A DNA stretch of 13,664 nt from a virus. Its lineage: Duplodnaviria; Heunggongvirae; Uroviricota; Caudoviricetes. Every line of letters starts with the position of its first letter. The first letter of the stretch is position 1. Under the pieces are notes generated by a model that saw only the letters and a program-made list of their open reading frames with translations, was not told the DNA's origin and did no database searches. The position numbers were made by a program, and so were the translations under genes. The stretch lies in the IMG/VR virus record IMGVR_UViG_3300014691_000055, one strand, 5' to 3'. Positions 1,249 through 13,664 of the stretch are shown piece after piece.

Positions 1249-1256
1249 ACGTAAAC

Positions 1257-1301
1257 TTTTTCCGGTTGTTGTCGATAGCTCTATATCCCTCAACCGGAAA
1301 A
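1257..1301. repeat. 11-bp perfect inverted repeat (TTTTCCGGTTG ... CAACCGGAAAA) with ~23-nt spacer just after the cscB stop; possible terminator-like or protein-binding hairpin
   Basis: Arms are exact reverse complements read directly from sequence; no U-tract follows, so not a canonical intrinsic terminator. Confidence 0.4.
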
Positions 1302-1689
1302 TAATAATAGTAAAATGCTTAGCCCTGCTAATAATCGCCTAATCCAAACGCCTCATTCATGTTCTGGTACAGTCGCTCAAATGTACTTCAGATGCGCGGT
1401 TCGCTGATTTCCAGGACATTGTCGTCATTCAGTGACCTGTCCCGTGTATCACGGTCCTGCGAATTCATCAAGGAATGCATTGCGGAGTGAAGTATCGAGT
1501 CACGCCATATTTCGCTATCAGGATTCTGTGTGATGGTTACATCGCCCGGCCCAGGGCTGTTTAGTCATCAGCGCTTTCTGACAGTGCTGAGATTTCAACC
1601 TGTTGCAGTAAAAATGAGTAGATATAAGGCAAGTGTGCTGCCAAACCCATCTTTTACGGGGTGAAGGTAGATTTCGTTTGAAGGGTATC

Positions 1690-1704
1690 TGGTGTCCCCT
1701 GCAG
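1690..1704 (-). other. att-like core: 15 nt identical to reverse complement of the 3' end of tRNA-Arg(CCU) argW (CTGCAGGGGACACCA)
   Basis: tggtgtcccctgcag read in sequence; match to argW 3' end is from memory of the tRNA sequence; flanked by a 7-bp inverted repeat (cccctgc / gcagggg at 1695..1727). Confidence 0.55.
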
Positions 1705-1761
1705 ACATCTACTTGAAGCAGCAGGGGATTGATTGGAATGGTGTTTTTTAGATGTGAGAAA

Positions 1762-1783
1762 TATTTTACCCGCTATTTTACCC
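1762..1783. repeat. Direct repeat tattttaccc x2 (1762..1771, 1774..1783), candidate arm-type recombinase binding sites near the att core
   Basis: Exact 10-bp direct repeat spaced 12 bp, ~60 bp from att-like core, overlapping 3' end of the alpA-like ORF. Confidence 0.3.
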
Positions 1784-1978
1784 ATTGGCGCGGCTTAAGA
1801 GCTTATTTTTGAATTCACAATGATCACGATATAACCATCTTGCTCGCCCGTGGATAACTTTGGCTTTAGGCAGGTCGCCGGACTTAATCCGGTCATAGAT
1901 GAAGGTCTTACCGAAGCCAGTATCGGCCATGATGAATTTCAAATCAACCAGTGAATCAGGTTGTAGTTCGTGTTGCAT
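1778..1978 (-). CDS. AlpA-family phage transcriptional regulator / excisionase-like DNA-binding protein (66 aa)
   Basis: ATG start (rc of 1976..1978) with GGAGA SD; translation has the AlpA-type motif FIMADTGFGKTFIYDRIKSGDLPKAKVIHGRARW. Confidence 0.7.
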   Translation of the reverse strand: MQHELQPDSLVDLKFIMADTGFGKTFIYDRIKSGDLPKAKVIHGRARWLYRDHCEFKNKLLSRANG

Positions 1979-1997
1979 GAGTGCTATCTCCGAATAG

Positions 1998-2013
1998 GGA
2001 ATCGAACCTGCAA
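1998..2013 (-). other. 16-nt fragment identical to reverse complement of the argW T-arm (TTGCAGGTTCGATTCC); tRNA-derived remnant, not a tRNA gene
   Basis: ggaatcgaacctgcaa read in sequence; no D-arm or anticodon arm follows, sequence to the right is an A/T-rich terminator. Confidence 0.45.
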
Positions 2014-2023
2014 ATCAGGTAAT

Positions 2024-2048
2024 AAAAAACCGCCATCAGGCGTTTTTG
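2024..2048. terminator. Short bidirectional intrinsic terminator-like hairpin (aaaaaCCGCC atca GGCGttttt)
   Basis: GC stem (4 bp) extended by A-run/T-run pairing, T-tract on + strand and A-tract giving U-tract on - strand; overlaps stop codon of the 55-aa ORF. Confidence 0.4.
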
Positions 2049-2203
2049 TGTTCTTTCAGTTCTTCAATTCGAATATTGGTTACGTCTGCATGTGCTATCT
2101 GCGCCCATATCATCCAGTGGTCATAGCAGTCGTTGATGTCCTCTGCTTCGATAACTCTGTTGAATGGCTCTCCATTCCATTCACCTGTGACTCGGAAGTG
2201 CAT
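2036..2203 (-). CDS. Hypothetical small protein (55 aa, MHFRVTGEWNGEPFNRVIEAEDINDCYDHWMIWAQIAHADVTNIRIEELKEHKNA); absent from supplied ORF track (below length cut-off)
   Basis: Hand-translated: ATG (rc 2201..2203) preceded by GGAGA SD 7 nt upstream, stop TGA (rc 2036..2038) inside terminator hairpin. Confidence 0.5.
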   Translation of the reverse strand: MHFRVTGEWNGEPFNRVIEAEDINDCYDHWMIWAQIAHADVTNIRIEELKEHKNA

Positions 2204-2390
2204 TTATCATCTCCATAAAACAAAACCCGCCGTAGCGAGTTCAGATAAAAGAAATCCCCGCGAGTGCGAGGATTGTTAGTTGCGCTCTGCTGCTGCCTTA
2301 GCCATTACCATATCCACCCAATTTCACCAGACATGATTCTCGCAATCACTATCATCACCAAAGTGATAATCACAACTTTAACTGGCGGCA

Positions 2391-2921
2391 TCATTTGCCA
2401 TCCTGCTGCGGCGGTTCTGGTAGCGGCATCCAGTGAGTTGCCTGCTCAATGCCATTACCCGGCTTAATCGTTGCTTGTCCTCGCCGAAAGGTACTTCCGG
2501 TATTGCGTGCGGAGCATATTAGCGGCTCAACCAGATCACTATCGAAATTCACCGAAATAAGTACGTTCTGATTCTTTTTCGGCATTCGCTCACTACAGCT
2601 TATCCAACCATCCGGAATTACCGCCACTGGCTTGGCGGTATAAAGCGGTGTTATATCTGCCCGAAAATTACATGCTTTATGCAGCCGCACCCACCGTTCG
2701 ACTTCTGCTTTGTCAGAATACATACCAGTGAACGTGTTATATTCACGGTCAATTTTCGTGAATGTTACCTTCCACGCCACCGGCTCTGCTTCCAGCGATG
2801 CCAGCGCAATCCGTGCCAGTTCTTCCGCTTCTTCTGCTGGCAGTACAACGTTGCTACCAGGTCCGTATGTTTCGCGCCACTGCTTGATTGTCCGCAGTCG
2901 CTCTTTGGTAATAGTGGTCAT
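2391..2921 (-). CDS. Phage protein with C-terminal DUF551-like domain (176 aa)
   Basis: ATG start overlapping upstream stop (ATGA at 2918..2921); C-terminal motif WISCSERMPKK...HWMPLPEPP typical of DUF551 phage proteins (from memory). Confidence 0.7.
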   Translation of the reverse strand: MTTITKERLRTIKQWRETYGPGSNVVLPAEEAEELARIALASLEAEPVAWKVTFTKIDREYNTFTGMYSDKAEVERWVRLHKACNFRADITPLYTAKPVAVIPDGWISCSERMPKKNQNVLISVNFDSDLVEPLICSARNTGSTFRRGQATIKPGNGIEQATHWMPLPEPPQQDGK

Positions 2922-3283
2922 GCCGTAACCCCTTCTTGATATTTTTCAAACCAGAACACAACCGGGTCAGATTTCATTTCAACCAATCCCATACGAACCA
3001 GCGCTTTGCCTTTCCCGGACGCAAGAAATTCACGACGACCATCACTGATAATTCGCCGATAATCTTCCAGGCTACTGCAATGCTTGTGCAGATTGCATGG
3101 GTGGCATGCCGGAACCATGTTGGATATATCGTCACGTTCCTGGTGAAGCATATTCCCAGCAAAACGAATGACCGGTTTTACATGGTCTGCATGCCACTTT
3201 TCGCCAAGTTCGCAGCCGCAATAAGCACAGCGACCGCCGAACTTCATGCGCAGCTCTGCACGTTGTTTTTTCGTCAGTGCCAT
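2918..3283 (-). CDS. HNH endonuclease (approx 121 aa from ATG at 3283; track ORF begins at upstream TTG 3373)
   Basis: CAYCGC...HADHV...ACHPCNLHKH zinc-finger/HNH motifs; ATG at rc 3281..3283 with AAGGAA SD; stop overlaps next gene start. Confidence 0.72.
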   Translation of the reverse strand: MALTKKQRAELRMKFGGRCAYCGCELGEKWHADHVKPVIRFAGNMLHQERDDISNMVPACHPCNLHKHCSSLEDYRRIISDGRREFLASGKGKALVRMGLVEMKSDPVVFWFEKYQEGVTA

Positions 3284-3284
3284 T

Positions 3285-3503
3285 TCAGTTTTCCTTATAT
3301 GGATTAATTTTATTGTGCAGTGTATTGAACGACGCCCATACCACGTCGTTATACAATTCAATAACTGGCTCAATTATTTTCCCGATTGCCCAGACAAAAA
3401 TTAGCGGGGATATCGGTATCATCAACACGATAAACAGAATGAGAAACAGGAATTCTGTTGTTCTACTCTTTCGTGGATATTTTTTTCTGAATAATGTGAC
3501 CAT
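3285..3503 (-). CDS. Hypothetical small membrane protein (72 aa, one predicted TM helix FLFLILFIVLMIPISPLIFVWAIG)
   Basis: ATG at rc 3501..3503; stop 1 nt before the HNH start, so operon-packed; SD weak and ~26 nt upstream behind a GC hairpin. Confidence 0.45.
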   Translation of the reverse strand: MVTLFRKKYPRKSRTTEFLFLILFIVLMIPISPLIFVWAIGKIIEPVIELYNDVVWASFNTLHNKINPYKEN

Positions 3504-3636
3504 TCATTACCGCCCTTTCGGGCGGCCTCCTGATGTTCTGAGGGTGCAGAAAACCCTCCGGTTAAGGATTTAATAAAAATCACTTCTGATTTAAATTTTC
3601 AGTGTTTTGTTGTCAGGTGGTTTATCGCCTTTATGC

Positions 3637-3942
3637 TTAAGCCTTATTTCTCAGCCATACACAAACAGGACCATCTTCAGTGTCATGAATGGAACCAATG
3701 AACCAACCTTCACCTTCCGGGCTCTCCGGTTTCCAGGAGGCAATATCGGGACCATCCGCGTCCAGATTAAAATCATCTTCATCCATAGTTCTGATGGTCC
3801 ATTGAAGATTATTTTCCTCCATCCAGGCGTTAAACTCTTCCGTTGAAATATGTTCTCTACCATCACAGAATTTTTCATATTCAGGATGCGTCCAGCAGCC
3901 ATATTCATCACGTACTACTGGTATTTCTTTAATTTCATTCAT
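3637..3942 (-). CDS. Hypothetical acidic phage protein (101 aa)
   Basis: ATG with GGGAGA SD; overlaps upstream gene by 8 nt; family not recognised. Confidence 0.55.
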   Translation of the reverse strand: MNEIKEIPVVRDEYGCWTHPEYEKFCDGREHISTEEFNAWMEENNLQWTIRTMDEDDFNLDADGPDIASWKPESPEGEGWFIGSIHDTEDGPVCVWLRNKA

Positions 3943-4189
3943 TTCTGTTCTCCCACGTTTTCAGACTTTCACCACAGAACGGGCAAAATGAAACTCGTAT
4001 TGGTGATTTAGAAAATTCACCGGAACGCAACATCACCAAATCAGGTCCACGAGTTAAACTCTCATTCCAGATTTTGTATATCAGCAGACCCTTTCGCGTC
4101 GTGCATTCAGCATCATGCTCAAGAGACTTTGCCAGTGCTGCACATGGTTCTATCTTGTTGCTATTAATTTGGCATTTTGACTCACTCAC
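3935..4189 (-). CDS. Hypothetical Cys-containing small protein (84 aa, C-terminal CPFCGE, possible zinc ribbon), GTG start
   Basis: GTG (rc 4187..4189) preceded by AAGGAGG SD at 6-nt spacing; start overlaps methyltransferase stop (GTGAGTGA). Confidence 0.5.
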   Translation of the reverse strand: MSESKCQINSNKIEPCAALAKSLEHDAECTTRKGLLIYKIWNESLTRGPDLVMLRSGEFSKSPIRVSFCPFCGESLKTWENRNE

Positions 4190-4667
4190 TGGTCGCCTCC
4201 TTCACAAAAATAATCCAGTGTGTTTTATCGTTCTTGCCGGTACGCTGGCTGATAACTGGTTTCGCGTTGGTTAGTGCCAATATCTGGCTAACCGGTATTT
4301 GCGTTTCATTCCATTTAAATATCAGAACGCCATGTGGACACAACACACGAAAGGCTTCTATAAATCCCTGTCGCAAATCATCACGCCAGGTATCTTTATT
4401 CAGCCGTCCATACTTCTTTCCCATCCAGGCGTTATCACCAACACGCTCAAGATGCGGAGGGTCGAATACAACAACCGGAAACGACGCGTCTGCAAACGGC
4501 AGCGCACGAAAATCAGCGATAATGTCAGGACTAATAATCAGTTGTCGTCCATCACATAGCGTATGTTTCTCTTTCCGGATATCGCTAAATATCGCCCGGT
4601 CGTCATTCTTATCAAACCAGAACATGCGGCTGCCGCAGCACATATCAAGAATGGCCGGTGCGCTCAC
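4182..4667 (-). CDS. Orphan phage DNA methyltransferase (161 aa; motif I LDMCCGS, motif IV DPPH), GTG start
   Basis: Translation shows AdoMet-binding and DPP[HY] catalytic motifs; GTG start with AGGAGGTGA SD, GTGA overlap with upstream stop; no cognate restriction gene adjacent. Confidence 0.72.
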   Translation of the reverse strand: MSAPAILDMCCGSRMFWFDKNDDRAIFSDIRKEKHTLCDGRQLIISPDIIADFRALPFADASFPVVVFDPPHLERVGDNAWMGKKYGRLNKDTWRDDLRQGFIEAFRVLCPHGVLIFKWNETQIPVSQILALTNAKPVISQRTGKNDKTHWIIFVKEATSE

Positions 4668-5086
4668 AGCATCACCTCCTGATAATTACCCTGATAGAAC
4701 GCCAGCACGCGCTGCATAACCTCGCTCTTCCGGCACTCGCGACAGATTATGTTCTGACGCCTGTCGTAGCGGCGTATTTCTCCGTCAGGTAATGACCAGA
4801 TAAGGTCCGGATCAACCACAACCGGTTTCTTCAGCTTTGCCCTCGATAATTTTTTGCGGGCATTTTGCCAGTCTTTACGAGCCTGTTCAGACGGGAATAA
4901 CCCGTAGCCAGAATTGTATACATCGCCACTGGCAACCAGCTCTCTGGCGAGAACACTCATCAGATATCTTGTCGCACCTGTTTTCGCTTCCAGTTGTCGT
5001 AACGTTTCGCGCCCGCTCTGGCGCACGAGTTCAACAACCTGCCTCTTAATTTTTTCCCGCTCTTCTTGTGTAAATACTTTTGCCAC
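4664..5086 (-). CDS. Hypothetical phage protein (140 aa), possibly replication-associated; GTG start
   Basis: GTG (rc 5084..5086) with AGGAGG SD 5 nt upstream; located immediately downstream of the replication initiator; family not recognised. Confidence 0.55.
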   Translation of the reverse strand: MAKVFTQEEREKIKRQVVELVRQSGRETLRQLEAKTGATRYLMSVLARELVASGDVYNSGYGLFPSEQARKDWQNARKKLSRAKLKKPVVVDPDLIWSLPDGEIRRYDRRQNIICRECRKSEVMQRVLAFYQGNYQEVML

Positions 5087-5126
5087 AAGTCCTCCTGAAA
5101 ATTACCTCATGACCTGAAATAAACAC

Positions 5127-6197
5127 TTACCCCCTGAAGCCCGGTGGAATTTCGGTATCCGGTTCAGAAATATGATTCACACAACGCTGGTTGTTCGTGC
5201 CGCTTACCGGGAGCAACCAGGGGTTTTCAAAATTCCGGTCCGGTCCAAAAAACGTCGTCGCTCGCTGAACAAATTCCGTTCCCGTTTTCCCGGTAGCCGC
5301 TAGGTATCTTGCGTAACGCCTCACACCATCCAGCATGGCCTCTGGTGGCACCCCCTCGCGTAATCTGGCCTTCCAGGCACTGAAAGCGGATTTCTTCGGG
5401 TTTGCCCCGGCACGCAACGGGTATTCCCGCCAGACCTGTTCGAACACATCCGGATAATACACTCGTCCCACAGGCTGCCCGGTGTTTTCCGGGACTACCC
5501 GATCGGCTTCCCGCTGAATGGCGGAATCGGCTTCAGGCTGCTGCAGTTGGTGTGATTGCTCCGGCCTTGCGGTCATCACCTGCTGCACAGCGCCCGAATC
5601 GGCTTTCAGCGCATACGCTGAATCGGCTTCCGGTGTCGTGCCTGCTGGCTGACCAGGATTGACGGTCTGAACATCCCCTGCCTGGTTCGTGGCGTTTTTT
5701 ACGCCATGGACCATAGTGTTTTGATCTTCTTGATCTGTATCTTTATCTGTATCTTTATCTGTCGTGACTCGTCGTGACATGTGCGTGACATTTCGTGACG
5801 CGCCGTGACAATCTCCATTTTGTTCCCGCTTTCTTTCCCTCTCTCGCTGCGCCCTCTTGCGCTCTGCAGGAGATTTTGCGGTTTGCGAAATATTGCCGTT
5901 GTCCTCTTTAAGCACCTGGCGTTTTTCCCATCCAGTGATTAAATCACCATCAAGTACCCGCCCCTGCATCGTCTGCAAAATTGAATCAATTACCTCTTCT
6001 GTCACGTCGAGCGCACTTGCCAAATCTTCTGTCGTGACATCAATGTGACCTCGCGTGACATTTCGTGACGCGCTCACCAGGAGGTGGATATACACTGCCA
6101 TCACTGTTGCAATTGGCTGCCCTGACACCCTGGCAATTGTTCGCCACTTAGGGTCATTTGGCATGTCATGCCATAATCTGAGCCAGGCGTTAGCCAT
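5127..6197 (-). CDS. Phage replication initiation protein (lambda O-like replisome organiser) with origin iterons embedded in coding sequence
   Basis: Start chosen at ATG rc 6195..6197 (SD AGAGGTGA) rather than track GTG at 6203; N-terminal HTH-like region, low-complexity middle, conserved C-terminal region; two clusters of CGTGAC repeats inside the gene. Confidence 0.7.
   Translation of the reverse strand: MANAWLRLWHDMPNDPKWRTIARVSGQPIATVMAVYIHLLVSASRNVTRGHIDVTTEDLASALDVTEEVIDSILQTMQGRVLDGDLITGWEKRQVLKEDNGNISQTAKSPAERKRAQRERERKREQNGDCHGASRNVTHMSRRVTTDKDTDKDTDQEDQNTMVHGVKNATNQAGDVQTVNPGQPAGTTPEADSAYALKADSGAVQQVMTARPEQSHQLQQPEADSAIQREADRVVPENTGQPVGRVYYPDVFEQVWREYPLRAGANPKKSAFSAWKARLREGVPPEAMLDGVRRYARYLAATGKTGTEFVQRATTFFGPDRNFENPWLLPVSGTNNQRCVNHISEPDTEIPPGFRG
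5735..5809. repeat. Iteron cluster 1: tandem 12-bp ctgtatctttat x2 followed by five CGTGAC motifs at 10-11 bp spacing (5763, 5773, 5784, 5794, 5804)
   Basis: Read directly; helical-phase spacing; followed by 50-nt polypyrimidine tract 5811..5860. Confidence 0.6.
6001..6073. repeat. Iteron cluster 2: GTCACG / CGTGAC motifs at 6001, 6033, 6054, 6064 plus GTGAC at 6046; contains 21-nt exact copy gcgtgacatttcgtgacgcgc (6053..6073) of 5783..5803
   Basis: Exact 21-nt repeat 270 bp apart verified by position-by-position reading. Confidence 0.6.
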
Positions 6198-6268
6198 ACT
6201 CACCTCTTTTGATACCGAATCTTTTTACTCACAAATTGCCGGAAGTGATCCGGTATGAATATTGCGAG

Positions 6269-6694
6269 TCAATGCACAGCCACAATATTTCCTGCAGGGC
6301 CACCACGATTCATCTGGTTGAAACCAGCGATCGCCACTGCGACAAAATCATCAGCGTCTCTCACCAGTCGTTCCCGCGTCTCCACTAGTTCCCGAAAATA
6401 GGCTGAGCTATGGCTGCGCATTCGGGCCACCAGCAGAGGTGGCATTGCTTTTTCGATAGCTGGTAACAACGCCTGAATTTTTTTAACCGCATCAGGGGTG
6501 TCTTTCTCCACCCAGCGGAAAATTTTCTGAGTATTGCGAGCCATGGCTTCCGGATGGCTGTCGTCATACAGTTCCGGGAACGTCATTCCCAGCTCGAAAT
6601 ACGCTTTGGTAATTTTCGCAGCCGGTACTTTTTCGCCGTCCGGATGCGCCCAGGCATTCATCGCCATGCGGATGTGTTCATGCTTGATTTTCAT
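6269..6694 (-). CDS. YdaT-like protein (CII-like regulator; formerly annotated as toxin YdaT), approx 141 aa from ATG 6694
   Basis: MKIKHEHI... N-terminus and ...VH C-terminus resemble Rac YdaT (memory); ATG at 6694 has AAGGGGGGA SD; alternative upstream ATG 6766 would extend overlap. Confidence 0.65.
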   Translation of the reverse strand: MKIKHEHIRMAMNAWAHPDGEKVPAAKITKAYFELGMTFPELYDDSHPEAMARNTQKIFRWVEKDTPDAVKKIQALLPAIEKAMPPLLVARMRSHSSAYFRELVETRERLVRDADDFVAVAIAGFNQMNRGGPAGNIVAVH

Positions 6695-6920
6695 GAATCC
6701 CCCCTTGGTTAGAAGGCGGATTATGATCAGAACCGGGAATGACAACCGTCGGTATGTGTAACTCATATTTGAGCGCCCCGGCAGTGACTGCCTGAATTAG
6801 CAACGCCCATTTCCACGGAACCTCTTCCCCCCACATGCTGACTGTGGTTTTTGACGTTCCTAGAGCTGCGGCTGTTTTAACAACTCCGCCAAAATAGCCT
6901 AATACTTCTGATTTTTTCAT
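6678..6920 (-). CDS. YdaS-like Cro-type HTH regulator (80 aa)
   Basis: ATG rc 6918..6920 with GGAGCG SD; motif GGVVKTAAALGTSKTTVSMWGEEVPW typical of YdaS/Cro-like HTH; divergent from cI-like gene. Confidence 0.68.
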   Translation of the reverse strand: MKKSEVLGYFGGVVKTAAALGTSKTTVSMWGEEVPWKWALLIQAVTAGALKYELHIPTVVIPGSDHNPPSNQGGIHENQA

Positions 6921-7011
6921 GAGTCGCTCCATAAAACTGAACGCCAAAAGTTTAATAATCAAAACCGAAGAAAGTCAAGAAACAAAACCATCTGTGTTTT
7001 AAAATCAAAAC
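6921..7011. promoter_or_regulatory. Divergent immunity-switch region: PR-like promoter for cro-like gene (-35 TTGACT = rc 6973..6978), PRM-like promoter for cI-like gene (-10 TAAAAT 7000..7005, leaderless), overlapping AAAAC/GTTTT inverted-repeat operators
   Basis: Inverted repeats AAAACTgaacgccaaAAGTTT (6934..6954), AAAACcatctgtGTTTT (6984..7000), GTTTTaaaatcAAAAC (6996..7011); cI ATG has no SD and sits 6 nt after a -10-like hexamer. Confidence 0.5.
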
Positions 7012-7650
7012 ATGAGCAAGCAAACAATATCTGAACGCATAACCCAACGTATGCATGCGCTAAACCTGAAAGGCAAAGACCTTGTCAATGCCACTGGCGC
7101 ATCAAAAGGCTCCGTAAGTCAATGGATGAACGGTGGAGGAGCGCCGTCCTCGCGTTACATAAGTTCACTGGCAAAGATATTGAAAGTAAACGAAAATTGG
7201 CTTCTTAATGGAGGAGAGTTAAATACAGGTGATTCGCTTGATCTATCTTTACCGCCGATAAAAACGGTTCCGCTACTATCACTTCAGCAGGCAGCAAGCT
7301 GGAGTGATTATATGAAAAATTCCTCAATAACCTCTTGTGTGCAGCTTGTCGGAGAAATCCCGGCCAATACCTTTGCAGTTGTTCTAGAGAGTGACAGTAT
7401 GTCAACATCTGGTGGGGGAGTTTCCATCCCAAATGGTTCAACAGTTTTTGTTGATCCCGATCGAACCGTACAACCAGGAAATATTGTCCTTGCCTTGCCC
7501 AAAGGGACCACAACACCTGTCATTCGTAAACTGGAGATTGAAGGGCCGGATATTCTTTTAGTCCCCACGAATCCTCGCTACCCTTCAATTATGCTGGATG
7601 ATCTATCTTGCATATTGGGCGTATGCTTTAAAATTCAACAAGATATTTAA
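7012..7650 (+). CDS. CI-like phage repressor (N-terminal HTH_XRE, C-terminal S24 LexA-like autopeptidase), 212 aa
   Basis: ATG 7012; HTH region GKDLVNATGASKGSVSQWMNG; C-terminal DSMSTSGGG...VIRKL Ser/Lys dyad pattern of S24 peptidases. Confidence 0.82.
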   Translation: MSKQTISERITQRMHALNLKGKDLVNATGASKGSVSQWMNGGGAPSSRYISSLAKILKVNENWLLNGGELNTGDSLDLSLPPIKTVPLLSLQQAASWSDYMKNSSITSCVQLVGEIPANTFAVVLESDSMSTSGGGVSIPNGSTVFVDPDRTVQPGNIVLALPKGTTTPVIRKLEIEGPDILLVPTNPRYPSIMLDDLSCILGVCFKIQQDI

Positions 7651-7714
7651 CCAACCTCATCTATTTGATTAACTGTATGCCATCGTGGTGATGGCTTAAC
7701 AGCTGCCTGCTCAA

Positions 7715-7763
7715 AATGTTTTGATAAAAAAACATTGACCTGAAAAGTTCATTTTTCTAAACT
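7715..7763 (+). promoter_or_regulatory. PL-like promoter (-35 TTGACC 7735..7740, 17-nt spacer, -10 TAAACT 7758..7763) overlapped by inverted repeats AATGTTTT/AAAACATT and GAAAA/TTTTC (candidate OL operators)
   Basis: Hexamers and repeats read from sequence; position between cI-like gene and the rightward small-gene operon. Confidence 0.4.
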
Positions 7764-7941
7764 TCATTCATTCCCTCACCCCACCCCACAGAATGCAGGG
7801 CAATACTTCGAGTTACCAGGCAGTGGTCAGGGGTTAAGTAGCCAGCCCGAGGCGTAAGAACATGACGGCAGGGTTCAACTTTAATAACTATGCAGCAGGT
7901 TTTTGTTCCGCTACCCGGCGTTAAGGGGAAATGAGGTCAAC

Positions 7942-8097
7942 ATGGATACTATCGATCTTGGCAACAACGAATCTCTGGTGTACGGCGTGTTTCCCAACCA
8001 GGACGGCACATTCACCGCGATGACGTATACCAAAAGCAAAACGTTTAAAACCGAAAATGGCGCCCGTCGCTGGCTGGAAAGAAACTCAGGTGAGTGA
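7942..8097 (+). CDS. YdfA-like small protein (DUF1391-type, 51 aa)
   Basis: ATG 7942 with GAGGT SD; translation MDTIDLGNNESLVYGVFPNQDGTFTAMTYTKSKTFKTENGARRWLERNSGE resembles Qin ydfA from memory; track ORF starts at TTG 7903. Confidence 0.6.
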   Translation: MDTIDLGNNESLVYGVFPNQDGTFTAMTYTKSKTFKTENGARRWLERNSGE

Positions 8098-8098
8098 T

Positions 8099-8227
8099 AT
8101 GGATTTCGACACAATCATGGAAAAGGCTTACGAAGAATACTTCGAAGGCCTTGCCGAAGGCGAAGAAGCTCTCAGCTTCAGTGAGTTTAAACAGGCGCTT
8201 TCCAGTTCGACAAAATCTATCGACTAA
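8099..8227 (+). CDS. YdfB-like small protein (42 aa; MDFDTIMEKAYEEYFEGLAEGEEALSFSEFKQALSSSTKSID); not in ORF track
   Basis: Hand-translated; ATG 1 nt after upstream stop (tgaTATG), stop TAA 8225..8227. Confidence 0.5.
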   Translation: MDFDTIMEKAYEEYFEGLAEGEEALSFSEFKQALSSSTKSID

Positions 8228-8238
8228 CGGGGTTAAAG

Positions 8239-8397
8239 ATGGAATTTAAAGATTTACCTCCAGACACTCAGAAAATCGCCGCAGAAACACTGAAATCTCT
8301 CATTTTGAACGGGGAGACAGAAAAGGTAGAGCCAGCTAAAAAACTGGCTCAAGAAATCAGAGAAGCCTTTATTGCTCTTTATCAGTCTTCTCCATAG
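8239..8397 (+). CDS. Hypothetical small protein (52 aa; MEFKDLPPDTQKIAAETLKSLILNGETEK...); possible ydfC-like; not in ORF track
   Basis: Hand-translated; weak SD (GGGG); follows ydfB-like gene by 11 nt. Confidence 0.38.
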   Translation: MEFKDLPPDTQKIAAETLKSLILNGETEKVEPAKKLAQEIREAFIALYQSSP

Positions 8398-8554
8398 CTG
8401 CTTGTTTTTCTTCTTTCAATATATTGCGAATTGTAATAACTGAATTAGCCGCATCTGAAGGGGATGACATTTTGCCAGCCCGAATTAACTCAACTGTTAA
8501 GTTCAAAGCTGCAACAGATGGATAGGTAAATGGGTTAATTAACTTTTCTGACAT
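8369..8554 (-). CDS. Hypothetical small hydrophilic protein (61 aa from ATG 8554) transcribed against the surrounding rightward operon
   Basis: ATG rc 8552..8554 with GGAGG SD at 5-nt spacing; 3' end overlaps the + strand 52-aa ORF by 29 nt; family not recognised. Confidence 0.42.
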   Translation of the reverse strand: MSEKLINPFTYPSVAALNLTVELIRAGKMSSPSDAANSVITIRNILKEEKQAAMEKTDKEQ

Positions 8555-8768
8555 TTTATCCTCCATTGAGGTTCTGGGTTAAAAATGGAGACCAACACGC
8601 TGCCACATGTGGTCGTGCGCCGGACACGGATAAGAATCCGGCACTGACAGTTTACTGAAAGGATATATCCCTGAAAAGTCAGGGCATAACGCGAAAGCGC
8701 ACGGCGAAGTTCGTCTCACTGTACGGTGTCGTTAAATTTAATTCGACCGTGCGCTTCCGGTTGTGGCA

Positions 8769-8959
8769 NNNNNNNNNNNNNNNNNNNNNNNNNNNNNNNN
8801 NNNNNNNNNNNNNNNNNNNNNNNNNNNNNNNNNNNNNNNNNNNNNNNNNNNNNNNNNNNNNNNNNNNNNNNNNNNNNNNNNNNNNNNNNNNNNNNNNNNN
8901 NNNNNNNNNNNNNNNNNNNNNNNNNNNNNNNNNNNNNNNNNNNNNNNNNNNNNNNNNNN
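8769..8959. other. Run of 191 N (assembly gap or masked sequence)
   Basis: Read directly; all track ORFs crossing it (X-containing translations) are artefacts. Confidence 0.99.
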
Positions 8960-9084
8960 CCAGTTGACTTCCGTATTGGTTCTTATGGGTGGGTTCTCTG
9001 TATCCGGCGTTAATTGTTAACTGGTTAACGTCACCTGGAGGCACCAGGCACCGCATCACAAAATTCATTGTTGAGGACGCGATA

Positions 9085-9273
9085 ATGGAAACGTTATTAC
9101 CAAACGTTAATACGTCTGAAGGTTGTTTTGAAATTGGTGTCAGTATCAGTAACCCTGCATTTACTGAAGATGCCATTAATAAGAGAAAACACGAACGGGA
9201 GTTATTAAATCAAATATGCATTGTTTCAATGCTGGCCCGTTTACGTCTGATGCAAAAAGGATACTGGCAATGA
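9085..9273 (+). CDS. Hypothetical small protein (62 aa; METLLPNVNTSEGCFEIGV...)
   Basis: ATG 9085 with GAGGA SD 8 nt upstream; stop overlaps next start (ATGA 9270..9273). Confidence 0.45.
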   Translation: METLLPNVNTSEGCFEIGVSISNPAFTEDAINKRKHERELLNQICIVSMLARLRLMQKGYWQ

Positions 9274-9473
9274 ATACCACATTTGCACTTGTTCTGACGG
9301 TTTTTCTTGTTTCCGGTGAACCGGTTGACATGGTTACTGGCGTATACGACTCAATGAAAGAATGCATGGCTGCCGCAGCGGAACAGAAAATTCCCGGTAA
9401 CTGCTATCCGGTCGATAAAGTTATTCACATGAATAATAACGAAGTCCCGGCAGGATTAAAAACAGCACCGTAA
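9270..9473 (+). CDS. Small exported protein (67 aa) with N-terminal signal-peptide-like segment MNTTFALVLTVFLVSG and two Cys
   Basis: ATG 9270 with AAGGA SD; hydrophobic N-terminus then hydrophilic body; translationally coupled to upstream ORF. Confidence 0.5.
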   Translation: MNTTFALVLTVFLVSGEPVDMVTGVYDSMKECMAAAAEQKIPGNCYPVDKVIHMNNNEVPAGLKTAP

Positions 9474-9553
9474 TTAATATCCGGTTTCATTTTTATATGC
9501 CAGCAATGGCAGGGATTTGTTCACCCTTAAATCTGTAATGAGGTTAAAACAAA

Positions 9554-12025
9554 ATGAGTAAAGTCTTTATTTGCGCCGCCATTCCGGACGAACAGGCAAT
9601 AAAGGAAGAAGGTGCAGTCGCTGTAGCCACTGCCATTGAAGCCGGCGACGAACGCCGCGCCCGTGCCAAATTTACCTGGCAATTCCTGGAGCAATATCCG
9701 GCTGCTCAGGACTGCGCTTATAAATTTCTTGTCTGCGAGGATAAACCCGGCATGCCCCGCCCTGCCATCGACTCCTGGGATACCGAATATATGCAGGAAA
9801 ACCGCTGGGATGAGGAATCCGCTTCCTTTGTTCCGGTCGAACCAGAATCCGATCCGATGAACGTCAATTTTGACAAGCTGTCCCTTGAAGTGCAGAACGC
9901 GGTCCTGGTTAAGTTCGGTACATGTGAAAACATCACCGTTGATATGGCGATTGACGCGCAGGAATTACTGCAGGAAAACGTGGCTACCTTTGACGGGCAT
10001 ATCGTTGAAGCACTGATGAAAACGCCTGAAATTAACGCTATGTATCCGGAACGCAAACTGTTCGCTATCGGATGGGTTAAACACAAATGTAATCCGGGTG
10101 CCAAATGGCCCGAAATTCAGGCTGAATTACGTAACTGGAAAAAACGGCAGGACGCAGAGCGCAAAGAGACTGGAAAATGCACGTCTGTTGTTGATCTCGC
10201 CCGCGCCAGAGTCAATCAACAGAACACTGAAAACTCAGCAGGAAAAATCAACCCAGTCACTGCCGCCATTCGTCGCCAATACAAGCAGACATGGAAAACG
10301 CTGGATGAAGAACTGGCCTACGCTCTCTGGCCTGGCGATATTGATGCCGGAAACATTGACGGCAGCATCCATCGCTGGGCAAAAAATGAAGTTATCGACA
10401 AAGATCGCGAAGACTGGAAGCGCATCTCCGCATCAATGCGCAAACAGCCTGATGCGATTCGCTACAACCGCCAAACTATTTTTGGCCTTGTCCGTGAACG
10501 TCCGATCGACATTCACAAAGATCCTGTAGCGCTGAACAAATACATCACTGAATACCTGGCGACAAAGGGCGTGTTTGAGGATGAAGAAACAGACCAGAGC
10601 ACTGCTGATATTCTCCAGCCGTCAGCAGCACAAACTGATGCAGTGGAAACTGAAGTATCTGATACCCAAAAAAATGAAAGCGCGCTGGAAACTGAACCAT
10701 CTGTAGAGCGTGAGGGACCGTTCTATTTTCTCTTCACCGATAAAGATGGCGAAAAATATGGCCGCGCAAACAAACTTTCTGGTCTGGATAAGGCGCTGGC
10801 TGCAGGGGCTACTGAAATCACGAAAGAAGAATATTTTGCCCGCAAAAACGGTACATACTCAGGTTCACAACAAAATACTGGTACATCTGACACGATCGCA
10901 CAACCAGAGCCGGTAAAAGTTACCGCTGACGAAGTAAACAAAATTATGCAGGCAGCCAATATCAGCCAGCCTGACGCCGATGAACTGCTTGCAGTATCAC
11001 GTGGTGAATTTGTTGCAGGGATTAGCGATCCGAATGATCCGAAATGGGTGAAGGGGATTGAAACCCGCGATTCTGTGAACCAGAACCAGCAAGAAATGGA
11101 ACAGAACGACCAGAAAGCGGAACAAAACAGCCCAAATACGCAACAAAACGAGCCAGAAACGAAACAATCCGAACCAGTAGCACAACAGGAACAGGAAAAA
11201 GTCTGCACCGCCTGCGGTCAGAGCGGTGGCGGCAACTGCCCTGATTGTGGCGCGGTGATGGGCGACGCAACATACCAGGAAACATTCGATGAAGAGAATC
11301 AGGTTGAAGTTCAGGAAAATGATCCGGAGGAAATGGAAGGCGCTGAACATCCACACAAGGAGAACCCTGGCGGCAATCAGCATCACGCCAGCGATAATAA
11401 AACTGGCGAGGCGACAGATCCCTTAATTAAGGTGAACAGTCATCATAAGCTCACATCCACCAGCAGAGCGGGGATTCATCTGATGATCGACCTTGAAACC
11501 ATGGGAAAAAATCCTGATGCCCCGATTATCTCAATAGGTGCAATATTTTTCGAGCCACAAACCGGAGATATGGGACCGGAATTTAGTAAGACTATCGATC
11601 TGGAAACTGCTGGCGGAGTCATTGATCGGGACACCATTAAATGGTGGCTTAAGCAATCACGCGAAGCGCAATCTGCCATTATGACCGATGAAATCCCGTT
11701 AGATGATGCACTGTTACAATTGCGGGAATTTATCGACGAAAACTCCGGTGAATTTTTTGTTCAGGTCTGGGGAAATGGAGCCAACTTCGACAACACGATT
11801 TTGCGCCGTTCATACGAACGGCAGGGGATCCCCTGCCCGTGGCGTTACTACAACGATCGCGATGTACGCACAATCGTTGAGCTGGGGAAAGCCATAGACT
11901 TCGATGCCAGAACGGCTATTCCATTCGAAGGTGAGCGCCATAATGCACTTGATGACGCCCGTTACCAGGCAAAATACGTTTCAGTTATCTGGCAAAAACT
12001 GATCCCGAGTCAGGCTGATTCTTAA
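9554..12025 (+). CDS. RecE-like (exodeoxyribonuclease VIII-like) large protein, 823 aa, whose C-terminal ~185 aa form a DnaQ-like DEDDh 3'-5' exonuclease domain
   Basis: Central region (SRGEFVAGISDPNDPKWVKGIETRD ... CTACGQSGGGNCPDCGAVMGDATYQETFDEENQVEVQENDPEEMEGAEHPH) matches my memory of Rac RecE; C-terminus has Exo I MIDLETMG, Exo II WGNGANFDNTIL, Exo III HNALDDARY. Confidence 0.8.
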   Translation: MSKVFICAAIPDEQAIKEEGAVAVATAIEAGDERRARAKFTWQFLEQYPAAQDCAYKFLVCEDKPGMPRPAIDSWDTEYMQENRWDEESASFVPVEPESDPMNVNFDKLSLEVQNAVLVKFGTCENITVDMAIDAQELLQENVATFDGHIVEALMKTPEINAMYPERKLFAIGWVKHKCNPGAKWPEIQAELRNWKKRQDAERKETGKCTSVVDLARARVNQQNTENSAGKINPVTAAIRRQYKQTWKTLDEELAYALWPGDIDAGNIDGSIHRWAKNEVIDKDREDWKRISASMRKQPDAIRYNRQTIFGLVRERPIDIHKDPVALNKYITEYLATKGVFEDEETDQSTADILQPSAAQTDAVETEVSDTQKNESALETEPSVEREGPFYFLFTDKDGEKYGRANKLSGLDKALAAGATEITKEEYFARKNGTYSGSQQNTGTSDTIAQPEPVKVTADEVNKIMQAANISQPDADELLAVSRGEFVAGISDPNDPKWVKGIETRDSVNQNQQEMEQNDQKAEQNSPNTQQNEPETKQSEPVAQQEQEKVCTACGQSGGGNCPDCGAVMGDATYQETFDEENQVEVQENDPEEMEGAEHPHKENPGGNQHHASDNKTGEATDPLIKVNSHHKLTSTSRAGIHLMIDLETMGKNPDAPIISIGAIFFEPQTGDMGPEFSKTIDLETAGGVIDRDTIKWWLKQSREAQSAIMTDEIPLDDALLQLREFIDENSGEFFVQVWGNGANFDNTILRRSYERQGIPCPWRYYNDRDVRTIVELGKAIDFDARTAIPFEGERHNALDDARYQAKYVSVIWQKLIPSQADS

Positions 12026-12035
12026 TGTTCAACTG

Positions 12036-12069
12036 TCGCCGGTTGTGACTGGTATTCTGCAACCGGCGC
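12036..12069 (+). other. Stem-loop (GCCGGTTG ... CAACCGGC, 14-nt loop) between recE-like gene and xis; possible attenuator or RNase site
   Basis: 8-bp inverted repeat read from sequence; no U-tract. Confidence 0.3.
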
Positions 12070-12097
12070 TCGTCTGATGTAAGAGATAAAGAAATCG

Positions 12098-12349
12098 ATG
12101 AGCGAAGTAATCATGATTGTCTCTCCCGGCAAATGGGTATCCGAAGAGCAGTTAATTGCGCTGAAAGGAATAAAAAAAGGTACGTTAAAAAAGGCCCGGG
12201 AAAAATCGTTTATGGAAGGAAGGGAATATAAGCATGTCGCTCATGACGGTATGCCATGGGATAACAGTCCATGCTTTTACAACCTGGAAGAAATTGATCG
12301 CTGGATTGAGCGCCAGGCATCAGCGAGACCAAGACGTCATCTTACTTGA
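12098..12349 (+). CDS. Excisionase-like protein (lambda Xis-type, 83 aa; alternative ATG at 12113)
   Basis: Position immediately upstream of integrase; GREY motif region resembles lambda Xis DNA-binding fold pattern (memory). Confidence 0.6.
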   Translation: MSEVIMIVSPGKWVSEEQLIALKGIKKGTLKKAREKSFMEGREYKHVAHDGMPWDNSPCFYNLEEIDRWIERQASARPRRHLT

Positions 12350-12368
12350 CTAAAAGCCACACTAACTA

Positions 12369-13664
12369 ATGAGAGAAGTTGAAATGAAATATCCGACAGG
12401 CGTGGAAAACCATGGAGGGAAATTACGTATCTGGTTTGTTTATAAAGGCGTAAGAGTCAGGGAAAATCTGGGGGTTCCTGACACAGCAAAAAACAGGCGC
12501 GTTGCAGGTGAACTACGCTCCTCTGTTTGTTACGCAATAAAAACTGGTGTTTTCGACTATGCAAAACAGTTTCCCTCCTCACGCAATCTGGAAAAATTTG
12601 GTGAGGCCCGACAAGATTTAACCATAAAAGAACTGGCTGAAAAATTTCTGGCACTGAAAGAAACTGAAGTCGCCAAAACATCACTCAACACATACCGTGC
12701 CGTCATCAAAAATATCCTGAGCATAATCGGTGAAAAAAATCTTGCCTCATCGATTAATAAAGAAAAATTACTGGAGGTTCGTAAAGAGCTACTGACTGGA
12801 TACCAGATCCCCAAAAGTAACTATATTGTTACACAACCAGGGAGATCGGCTGTAACTGTAAATAATTACATGACAAATCTTAACGCCGTGTTCCAGTTTG
12901 GTGTTGATAACGGTTACCTGCCAGATAATCCGTTTAAGGGGATCTCGCCATTAAAGGAATCAAGAACCATTCCGGATCCTCTTTCGCGGGAGGAATTTAT
13001 CCGTCTTATCGATGCGTGCAGAAATCAGCAAGCAAAAAATTTATGGTGTGTTTCTGTTTATACTGGCGTTCGCCCTGGTGAGCTGTGTGCACTTGGATGG
13101 GAGGACATAGATCTGAAAAATGGAACAATGATGATCAGGAGAAATTTAGCAAAAGACCGTTTCACGGTACCAAAAACACAGGCGGGAACCAATCGGGTCA
13201 TTCATCTTATTAAGCCAGCAATCGACGCTCTCCGGAGTCAGATGACATTAACGAGACTGAGCAAAGAGCATATCATTGATGTTCACCTCAGAGAGTATGG
13301 CAGAACAGAAAAACAAAAATGCACCTTTGTTTTTCAACCTGAAGTGTCAGCGAGAGTAAAAAATTATGGTGACCATTTTACCGTTGACTCAATAAGGCAG
13401 ATGTGGGACGCAGCGATAAAACGTGCCGGACTCCGCCATCGAAAATCATATCAGTCGAGACATACTTATGCCTGCTGGTCGCTGACAGCTGGTGCTAACC
13501 CGGCATTTATAGCAAACCAGATGGGCCATGCAGATGCGCAAATGGTATTTCAGGTATACGGAAAATGGATGTCTGAAAACAATAATGCACAGGTAGCTTT
13601 GTTAAATACACAGTTAAGCGAGTTTGCCCCAACCATGCCCCATAACGAAGCAATGAAAAATTAA
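12369..13664 (+). CDS. Tyrosine-type site-specific integrase (N-terminal arm-binding DUF3596-like domain plus C-terminal catalytic domain), 431 aa; alternative start ATG 12384
   Basis: C-terminal motifs HTYACWSL...GHADAQMVFQVYGKW (H-x-x-R, catalytic Tyr context); N-terminal KLRIWFVYKGVRVRENLG arm-binding pattern; ORF stop at final window base. Confidence 0.88.
   Translation: MREVEMKYPTGVENHGGKLRIWFVYKGVRVRENLGVPDTAKNRRVAGELRSSVCYAIKTGVFDYAKQFPSSRNLEKFGEARQDLTIKELAEKFLALKETEVAKTSLNTYRAVIKNILSIIGEKNLASSINKEKLLEVRKELLTGYQIPKSNYIVTQPGRSAVTVNNYMTNLNAVFQFGVDNGYLPDNPFKGISPLKESRTIPDPLSREEFIRLIDACRNQQAKNLWCVSVYTGVRPGELCALGWEDIDLKNGTMMIRRNLAKDRFTVPKTQAGTNRVIHLIKPAIDALRSQMTLTRLSKEHIIDVHLREYGRTEKQKCTFVFQPEVSARVKNYGDHFTVDSIRQMWDAAIKRAGLRHRKSYQSRHTYACWSLTAGANPAFIANQMGHADAQMVFQVYGKWMSENNNAQVALLNTQLSEFAPTMPHNEAMKN

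Follow-up and report, generated by a model that had tools for sequence, protein, structure and literature searches.

A DNA stretch of 13,664 nt (the window) was analyzed, and its positions 1690-13664 are a splice of two different temperate-phage genomes rather than one shrunken prophage. The left part, from 1690 to ~2929-3425, is the promoter-distal end of the PL operon of a P22-like prophage in tRNA-argW; it contains genes for an HNH and a DUF551 protein, a 55-aa ORF, the gene for the excision factor TorI, and attR. Positions 2902-13664 are a lambdoid early region of the mEp460/Tritos/Qin type, with the immunity region, a PR operon (cro, replication and nin-type genes) and the whole PL arm (ydfA, dicB, exonuclease, xis, int).

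The minus strand carries every gene across 1778-6920, in the transcription order Cro, YdaT/CII-like regulator, replication initiator, DUF977, methyltransferase, two small ORFs, DUF4014, HNH, DUF551, 55-aa ORF and TorI. The plus-strand genes on the right side encode CI, YdfA, DicB, YdfD, an 823-aa exonuclease, Xis and Int (Table 1). A preliminary description of this DNA had early, replication and nin-type genes running into an att core at 1690-1704, and this gene order was confirmed. Its statement that late functions are lacking also held for the window, where no Q, holin, endolysin, terminase, head or tail gene was found and every gap is too small for one. Its gene list omitted the 66-aa excisionase-type gene torI (1778-1978). 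No tRNA gene was found in the window. The right end of the window is the stop codon of int, and the int-side att site therefore falls outside it; in K-12 Qin this site lies no more than ~37 nt past int.

Table 1. Features of the 13,664-nt window.
Feature	Position	Strand	Evidence or remark
cscB sucrose permease, chromosomal flank	1-1248	+	ORF; annotated cscB / oligosaccharide MFS transporter in E. coli
Spacer, chromosomal side of attR in csc+ strains, non-phage	1249-1689		Identical in csc+ contigs L060-L062
attR core, argW-integrating KplE1/CPS-53-type prophage	1690-1704	-	Last 15 nt of tRNA-argW
attR phage arm, putative TorI/IntS binding region	1705-1777	-	Homology with K-12
torI, recombination directionality factor of argW module	1778-1978	-	phrog_66 excisionase; 66/66 vs K-12 TorI
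55-aa phage ORF, usual torI neighbor	2036-2203	-	phrog_676
DUF551 protein, 176-aa allele specific to argW-type prophages	2391-2921	-	PF04448
HNH endonuclease, 121 aa, in both parental phage types	2918-3283	-	PF01844; exact protein on record
Crossover interval, 497-bp tract	2929-3425		Mismatch maps vs L062 and L074
DUF4014 protein	3285-3503	-	PF13198, E = 1.4e-25
101-aa phage ORF	3637-3942	-	phrog_1372; contiguous with following genes in A37, L074, L080
84-aa phage ORF	3935-4189	-	phrog_4030
Class I SAM-dependent DNA methyltransferase	4182-4667	-	phrog_954, E = 1e-85; RefSeq names
DUF977 protein	4664-5086	-	PF06163, E = 1.4e-31
Replication initiation protein / replisome organizer	5127-6197	-	phrog_3729, E = 6e-257; RefSeq 'phage replisome organizer'
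YdaT-family / CII-like regulator	6269-6694	-	PF06254, phrog_163
Cro	6678-6920	-	PF14549 P22_Cro
CI-type repressor, full length, HTH + S24 self-cleaving peptidase domain	7012-7650	+	PF00717, PF01381
YdfA (DUF1391)	7942-8097	+	PF07151
Two small convergent ORFs, variable PL module	8239-8397, 8369-8566	+, -	phrog_9419, phrog_17494
Masked N run	8769-8959		DicF-like sRNA at this place in relatives
DicB cell-division inhibitor	9085-9273	+	PF05358, E = 2e-38
YdfD (DUF1482)	9270-9473	+	PF07358
YdfE-like exonuclease, 823 aa, mosaic allele	9554-12025	+	PF16473
Xis of lambdoid part	12098-12349	+	phrog_539 excisionase, PF06806
Tyrosine integrase, Qin/mEp460 type	12384-13664	+	PF12167 + PF00589

Positions 1-~3425 have 99.6% identity to the TorI/attR end of P22-like argW prophages (KplE1/CPS-53, HK620, Sf6 type). 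Contig L062, which carries a normal argW prophage beside cscB, was found to be 100% identical to the window over 1-1719 and 99.57% identical over 1-3497, with mismatches clustering only past 3425. Homology to L063 and L064, in which another neighbor follows attR, ended at 1690-1692. On the minus strand, 1690-1704 read CTGCAGGGGACACCA without a mismatch, a sequence that forms the 3' end of tRNA-argW and is the core repeated in CPS-53/KplE1 of K-12; the K-12 core sequence is CTGCAGGGGACACCAT (PMC2951348). This was the single match to the argW core in the window, with 0.04 matches expected by chance even when two mismatches are allowed, and the att-like core of the preliminary description thereby proved to be genuine. 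The K-12 region 2476261-2476599 (torI, attR and pawZ) had 97.9% identity to window positions 1690-2028, and TorI was identical to K-12 TorI in 66 of 66 residues. The 55-aa ORF adjoins TorI in all 10 contigs shown, and the exact 176-aa DUF551 protein was found on five contigs only, all of them with canonical argW prophages. The HNH gene is located at the PL end in L060-L064 and in the nin region in L074 and L080.

L074 and L080, both complete lambdoid prophages, were 99.74% identical to the window over 2902-8225, and their matching genes run on into hok, DUF968, RusA, Q, lysis and terminase genes; strains A37 and AH19B041 have the same arrangement. The window shares the early-region synteny int-xis-exonuclease-ydfD-dicB-(DicF)-ydfA-cI on one side and cro-YdaT-rep-DUF977 on the other, the position of DicF being masked by N. 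In Tritos and K-12 Qin the corresponding runs were cI-ydfABC-DicF-dicB-ydfD-exo-xis-int and cro-rep-DUF977. The exact Int protein was present in 4600 collection blocks, with rspB downstream in all 10 places shown, and the K-12 intQ remnant had 99.6% identity to 12505-13664. The exact CI protein is widespread among lambdoid prophages. Exact-protein look-ups of the replication protein (with two start sites) and of the exonuclease returned none on record; the contig scan gave relatives only, the best being S. flexneri SFBU0723 (97.8% over 4689-6699).

Outside the joint the window was contiguous in independent natural contigs, namely across 8225, the N run and 12100, and the small-ORF module at 8239-8566 was contiguous with its neighbors in L067, L069 and L097. 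Private alleles were found at 5459 and within the exonuclease gene. In the exonuclease region 8960-11364 was 100% L097-like and the sequence past 11560 was of the rspB type, while 11365-11557 was a private allele unlike all references. A second chimeric joint inside this gene was considered and dropped, since the private allele looks like natural mosaicism and not like a two-parent splice.

The crossover interval was located to 2929-3425, comprising HNH and DUF4014 sequence common to both phage types. Here L062 and L074 are both identical to the window save for a SNP, at 3155, that the two have in common. At this position the window agrees with L080, and on that basis the interval would shrink to 2929-3154. 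L062 and L074 have 596 bp in common at 98.3% identity. A junction at the boundary between the methyltransferase and DUF977 genes (~4650-4690) was initially considered; comparison with closer relatives (A37, followed by L074 and L080) shifted it first to DUF4014 and in the end to 2929-3425.

The joint departs from the canonical layout of argW prophages. Of the contigs with the exact DUF551 or 55-aa protein of the window, all 15 have TorI at the end of a PL operon, and it is likewise terminal in the PL operon of the complete genome MEI1A-0323. In all of these cI is on the torI strand and cro/rep on the other, whereas the window has the reverse. A foreign PR operon (cro, rep, nin) running into TorI was found only in the window, compared to the canonical order in all 15 related contigs. 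The joint is a singleton across every collection searched. Among 5,426 complete E. coli genomes, coverage of the window never exceeded 62%, and the best contiguous match across 3150-3750 was 94%. A joint-specific 176-mer (3310-3485) had no match in IMG/VR or JGI metagenome contigs; in an IMG/VR scan with a 50-mer from 8553-8602 the source contig was absent. Look-ups of the exact DUF551 and DUF977 proteins, the 55-aa ORF and a 65-aa ORF returned parental-type contigs only. In the window the nin-type genes are fused to an att-proximal end, as had been proposed, but not by an internal deletion of one prophage, since two phage types are involved.

The two ends of the splice are non-cognate. The window Int and IntS have a single 34-residue stretch in common, with 11 of 34 residues shared, and Xis and TorI are unrelated. 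A search near the left end for a copy of the int-side (Qin-type) att site found only chance 9-11-mers. Int and Xis are one system and attR and TorI another, and the stretch between them is consequently not excisable by either system. The earlier suggestion of a ~12 kb unit that could be excised, or mobilized as a unit, therefore found no support: the att core and TorI belong to the argW system and Int and Xis to the rspB-type system. Replication of the stretch is predicted to be possible in place at most. Neither an IntS-type integrase nor a second copy of the argW core was found in the window, and both may exist elsewhere in the genome; the argW system is thus additionally without its integrase here.

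Both phage types carry one HNH-DUF4014 module of ~0.5 kb, and homologous exchange within this module may have joined the two phages. We infer that an exchange took place in the cell, which appears slightly the more probable case. The full reading of a two-phage splice formed by homologous exchange in the cell at HNH-DUF4014 is tentative, and we place it just short of an even chance. As a consequence of an exchange at this place, the lambdoid PR operon now reads into torI and attR. What the window shows is commonplace shuffling of prophages or, possibly, a mistake in assembly.

Placed on the K-12 map, the flank with cscB and torI points the opposite way from the flank with int and rspB, as expected of an inversion or of an insertion by homology. 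If the rspB and argW prophages recombined by inversion, two chimeric prophages, each the reciprocal of the other, would result. Alternatively, one crossover would place a complete circular lambdoid genome within the argW prophage; only in this topology would the late genes lie beyond 13664. Phages that have a working Int rarely enter as a whole by homology. The rspB-argW inversion, for its part, would be asymmetric about the terminus and would flip TerB and tus, located between these sites (K-12 1.684 Mb), and such a flip should be costly because of the Tus-Ter fork trap. A deletion between directly oriented prophages was rejected, because the K-12 map would place the modules in inverted orientation and because it would remove ~0.8 Mb, essential genes among them. 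A replacement by double crossover was also rejected, as the shared late and early modules would be oppositely oriented.

Upon SOS derepression of the intact CI, PL is predicted to express DicB, YdfD, the exonuclease, Xis and Int, while PR is predicted to express Cro, the replication proteins and, abnormally, TorI.

A repeat of ~0.5 kb that is perfectly identical would also suit a misjoin by a short-read or metagenome assembler. An argW prophage beside cscB and a lambdoid prophage, probably at rspB, would in that case have been misjoined via the 497-596-bp HNH-DUF4014 repeat, and we consider this a serious possibility, if one that falls somewhat below even. The joint sits exactly in the tract that is perfectly identical between both phage types and is a singleton in all collections searched, GCA_032003785.1 has the parental arrangements on one contig each (L062 and L074), and a break in the Logan contig L081 falls at 3419, on the border of the repeat. 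The flipping of TerB and tus in the alternative inversion speaks for a misjoin as well. However, unresolved repeats normally make assemblers break contigs and not misjoin them, and GCA_032003785.1 was assembled straight through the HNH-DUF4014 repeat on both contigs. The private alleles (5459 and 11365-11557) and the otherwise natural contiguity also argue that the window is no patchwork throughout. The two-parent composition would still hold with a misjoin, although the joint would not be biological.

Returning to an exchange in the cell, an unlikely reading is that the joint is real and records a natural inversion of ~0.8 Mb within one replichore, between the rspB lambdoid prophage and the argW prophage, with TerB and tus flipped and two permanently locked chimeras as the outcome. 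If so, TorI, which is also an inhibitor of TorR, would be under the SOS-inducible PR of a foreign phage, and the now inverted att pairs could re-flip the segment by site-specific recombination.

A single defective lambdoid prophage of ~12 kb, which has lost its late region by deletion and retains its own att sites and cognate int and xis and which could be excised or mobilized by a helper, is very improbable. The int, xis, cI, cro and replication genes do look intact and a real att core is present at the far end, but this core and the adjoining recombination directionality factor belong to the argW/IntS system while Int is of the rspB-site type and unrelated to IntS. Moreover, the left end has no int-side att-like sequence, and the 1.7-kb stretch beside the core is 99.6% identical to the PL end of a different phage. 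Least credible is a helper-mobilized phage satellite (PICI-like island): the ~12 kb size, an int, a repressor, a replication module and an AlpA/excisionase-like gene without structural genes would fit, but every module is 94-100% identical to the matching part of full-size temperate phages or prophages, the window has no capsid-redirection, small-terminase or packaging gene, the ends are non-cognate, and the singleton belongs to no family of similar islands.

The left end resembles the KplE1/CPS-53 module of K-12 (IntS and TorI), which is common to HK620, Sf6 and CUS-3: the core is identical over 15 nt (CTGCAGGGGACACCA(T)) and torI lies directly inside attR. The chromosomal neighbor is cscB in the window compared to dsdC in K-12. 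The argW module normally has torI closing the PL operon of its own phage and sharing a strand with cI and N, whereas torI of the window is fed by the foreign PR operon (cro-rep-nin) and cI is on the opposite strand.

For the right part the likeness is to Qin, mEp460 and Tritos, of which Tritos covers 59% of the query at 94.4%. Prophages of this type integrate beside ynfP/rspB, and their att site follows the int stop codon by a few tens of nt. The nin-type genes of the window lead to torI and attR and not, as in these phages, to hok, DUF968, RusA, Q, lysis and morphogenesis genes; late genes follow the PR operon in L074, A37, AH19B041 and Tritos. The repressor is a full 212-aa S24 protein in contrast to DicA of Qin, and the exonuclease is a private mosaic allele.

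Natural prophage inversions are usually symmetric about ter, and in E. coli O157:H7 FRIK804 a 1.15-Mb inversion relative to Sakai, at a 174-bp repeat, left a pair of chimeric prophages (PMC7430833). Together with 'grounded' prophages (PMC6379469) these form a comparison class for the window, with a crossover in a short shared repeat, ends from different elements and loss of excision. Unlike the FRIK804/Sakai chimeras, the window shows a single product of the putative exchange, and the inversion implied would be asymmetric about the terminus.

For prophage annotation, the presence of an integrase and, at the opposite end, of a true att core is not enough to infer an excisable element, and whether the two are cognate needs to be checked; an automated caller would list the present stretch as a single small 'intact-looking' prophage. 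A real joint would mark a large chromosomal rearrangement or a homology-inserted phage, with TorI expression rewired to the lytic promoter of another phage. An artefact would instead flag a class of misjoins at moron modules of ~0.5 kb that are 100% identical between co-resident prophages. No outcome brings in a new biological principle.

Rfam at the gathering threshold gave no match in the window. At the place of the masked run (8769-8959) relatives carry a DicF-like sRNA (RF00039, 28.6 bits, below the gathering score).

The gene content of the window bears out the anatomy of the preliminary description, which had listed early, replication and nin genes with no late module. No gene for Q, lysis, terminase, head or tail was found in the window, where all gaps are too small to hide one, and the window contains no tRNA gene. 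All genes between 1778 and 6920 are on the minus strand, while the plus strand carries those from 7012 to 13664. The CI repressor (7012-7650) is full length with 212 aa (HTH and S24 domains); a 112-aa S24 fragment stands alone at this position in several rspB-site and related E. coli prophages.

Genes of the window, grouped by strand and listed in order
Feature	Position	Strand	Remark
cscB	1-1248	+	ORF at window start
Cro, YdaT-family/"CII-like", replication initiator/replisome organiser, DUF977, DNA methyltransferase	within 1778-6920	-	in transcription order
Two small phage ORFs, DUF4014, HNH, DUF551, 55-aa ORF, 66-aa excisionase-type protein	within 1778-6920	-	after methyltransferase, in transcription order
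CI repressor, YdfA, two small ORFs, 191-nt N run, DicB, YdfD	within 7012-13664	+	in order
823-aa exonuclease, Xis, tyrosine integrase	within 7012-13664	+	after YdfD, in order

None of 5,426 complete E. coli genomes covered more than 62% of the window. The left part matches the cscB-adjacent prophage end of many strains, and positions 1-3497 are 99.57% identical to an argW-type prophage reference (L062; GCA_032003785.1, contig 17), with the mismatches past 3155 all within 3426-3482. Positions 2902-8225 are 99.74% identical to two lambdoid-type references, L074 (contig 3 of the same assembly) and L080, with mismatches near the left edge at 2905 and 2928 only. From 2929 to 3425 both L062 and L074 are identical to the window except for a SNP at 3155, where the window has the L080 allele. 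The switch between parents is therefore located inside the HNH-DUF4014 tract, and at 2929-3154 if the parent phage was L080-like. A junction at approximately 4650-4690, suggested by more distant relatives, was ruled out by closer ones.

The L062 and L074 prophages reside in the same genome but differ in type and site, and they have 596 bp in common at 98.3% identity. Their operons are otherwise unrelated, and the 497 bp of perfect identity covering HNH and DUF4014 suggest that the "ea" region in the PL operon of one phage has recently exchanged this moron module with the "nin" region in another phage's PR operon. JGI sample 3300014682 contains a contig matching 1-3497 at 98.7% (L061/L089) and another matching 8117-11364 at 100% (L097). 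Since the immunity and replication region of the latter differs, this contig is closely related to the source population without being the source itself.

Read on the minus strand, positions 1690-1704 give exactly CTGCAGGGGACACCA, the tRNA-argW 3' end and repeated core of the K-12 prophage CPS-53/KplE1 (the K-12 attR copy is annotated pawZ); the published core of this system is CTGCAGGGGACACCAT (PMC2951348). This was the sole match in the window, with a chance expectation of 0.04 even allowing two mismatches. The torI-attR region of K-12 matches 1690-2028 at 97.9% identity, and the sequence of the 66-aa protein is that of TorI, which partners the integrase IntS as recombination directionality factor (PMC2951348). 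In contigs with another neighbour after attR the homology to the window ends at 1690-1692, which places the phage/chromosome boundary there. The att site of the preliminary description is thus a real core, but it is that of the argW system. The window shares core and TorI with the KplE1/HK620/Sf6 argW module but lacks IntS.

The spacer between cscB and the core (1249-1689) is conserved among csc+ strains. In strain MEI1A-0323 RefSeq annotates a DUF4942 pseudogene fragment in it (approximately 1391-1480), perhaps left over from an older island at this site. In GCA_017024615.1 (L063/L092) homology to the window ends exactly at 1692, and a P4-like satellite follows the TorI/attR end in place of cscB or dsdC, apparently in tandem at the argW-derived core. 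It spans approximately 10,700-20,100 of L092 and encodes an Arm-DNA-bind_3 integrase, AlpA, a primase, two Psu proteins and Ogr/Delta.

The integrase of the window (426 aa) belongs to the rspB-site system. The public assembly collection lists an identical integrase in 4600 blocks, and rspB and rspA come after it in all 10 places shown, sometimes with IS66 in between. Positions 12505-13664 are 99.6% identical to the K-12 Qin intQ remnant and, as the Qin boundary is 37 nt past the int stop codon, the int-side att site should be just outside the window. Int and IntS have only one 34-residue stretch in common, with 11 identities, and sequence comparison found Xis and TorI unrelated. The int-rspB intergenic region of a related prophage had no counterpart near the left end of the window, only chance 9-11-mers. 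The window thus contains two excision factors, one integrase and one att core, and this core is cognate to an absent integrase and not to the Int present.

We compared 15 contigs (L062 and fourteen others) carrying the exact DUF551 or 55-aa protein of the window. All of these contigs and the complete genome of MEI1A-0323 have TorI at the end of a P22-like PL operon ordered cI, N, kil/cIII, erf or Rad52, anti-RecBCD, Ea22 and then the left-part genes, ending with HNH, DUF551, the 55-aa ORF, TorI and attR; torI and cI share a strand, with cro and the replication genes on the opposite strand. In L074, L080 and strains A37 and AH19B041, cro, YdaT, rep, DUF977, methyltransferase, DUF4014 and HNH start a PR operon that continues to hok, DUF968, RusA, Q, lysis and terminase genes. 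Phage Tritos has this PR layout too but lacks the methyltransferase-DUF4014-HNH module. Only in the window is a lambdoid PR operon joined to the TorI/attR end. For the rest of the window, independent natural sequences show the same continuity (across 8225, the N run and 12100), and the mosaic structure of the exonuclease gene, which includes a private 190-nt allele, is natural. Unlike normal mosaicism, the window is a splice between two prophages, and we consider its two-parent composition and non-cognate ends highly probable for any route of origin. The earlier interpretation is thus supported only in part: the nin region is fused to the att side, but the fusion joins two prophages and yields a unit that is not excisable. 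Neither component is unusual: one belongs to the KplE1/HK620/Sf6 argW module and the other to the Qin/mEp460/Tritos lambdoid phages, both well known, and the splice exemplifies a known process.

On the K-12 map int then rspB reads forward, as does torI then dsdC or cscB; in the window, the side with torI and cscB runs opposite to the int side. This geometry fits an inversion, a whole-phage insertion or an assembler misjoin. A real exchange by either of the first two comes a little short of an even chance. In an inversion, the HNH-DUF4014 copy that an rspB-site lambdoid prophage carries in its PR operon would recombine with the inverted copy in the PL operon of the argW prophage. Inversions leaving chimeric prophages are documented, in one case of 1.15 Mb at a 174-bp repeat (PMC7430833; cf. 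PMC6379469). However, this inversion would be asymmetric about the terminus and flip TerB and tus (K-12 1.684 Mb), located between both sites. Given the established Tus-Ter fork trap, this should be costly. The whole-phage insertion, a single crossover placing a circular Tritos-like genome into the argW prophage, avoids this cost, but phages with a working Int rarely integrate this way. Under this route attP and tail genes would lie just past 13664, and the apparent defectiveness would reflect the position at which the window ends. The third route, a misjoin by the assembler through the perfect repeat of 0.5 kb, is a serious contender, though clearly below an even chance: the joint was a singleton among the collections searched (5,426 complete E. 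coli genomes, IMG/VR and JGI metagenome contigs), both parental arrangements occur on separate contigs of one assembly, and the edge of the HNH-DUF4014 repeat is where a Logan contig breaks off. The remaining probability lies with other possibilities. A PICI-like satellite was excluded by the absent packaging module, near-identity to full-size phages and lack of recurrence.

Given the S24 domain of CI, both PL and PR are expected to be released from repression on DNA damage. PL would then yield DicB, YdfD, the exonuclease, Xis and Int, and PR would yield Cro, YdaT, replication proteins and nin-type genes, with TorI by read-through. The excision considered in the preliminary description is not expected: int and att core are non-cognate, and since neither recombination system has a matching att pair around the stretch, the unit is locked in place and could at most replicate in situ. 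In the inversion topology each att pair would be approximately 0.8 Mb apart and inverted, and site-specific recombination would invert the segment rather than excise it.

The exonuclease gene (9554-12025) is a three-part mosaic allele. From 8960 to 11364 the window matches JGI contig Ga0121488_100033 (L097) at 100% identity, the sequence beyond approximately 11560 is near-identical to rspB-site prophages, and 11365-11557 differs at 20-27 sites from most loci aligned there, apparently a hypervariable linker region in YdfE-like exonucleases. Approximately 125 nt separate the N run (8769-8959) from dicB downstream of it. The corresponding stretch of relatives is 228 nt long and includes a DicF-like sRNA, which in relative contig L067 (6016-6066) scored 28.6 bits with RF00039 (E = 1.9e-4), under the gathering score of 48. 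DicF is annotated at the same position in phage Tritos, and the N run therefore probably hides a divergent DicF.
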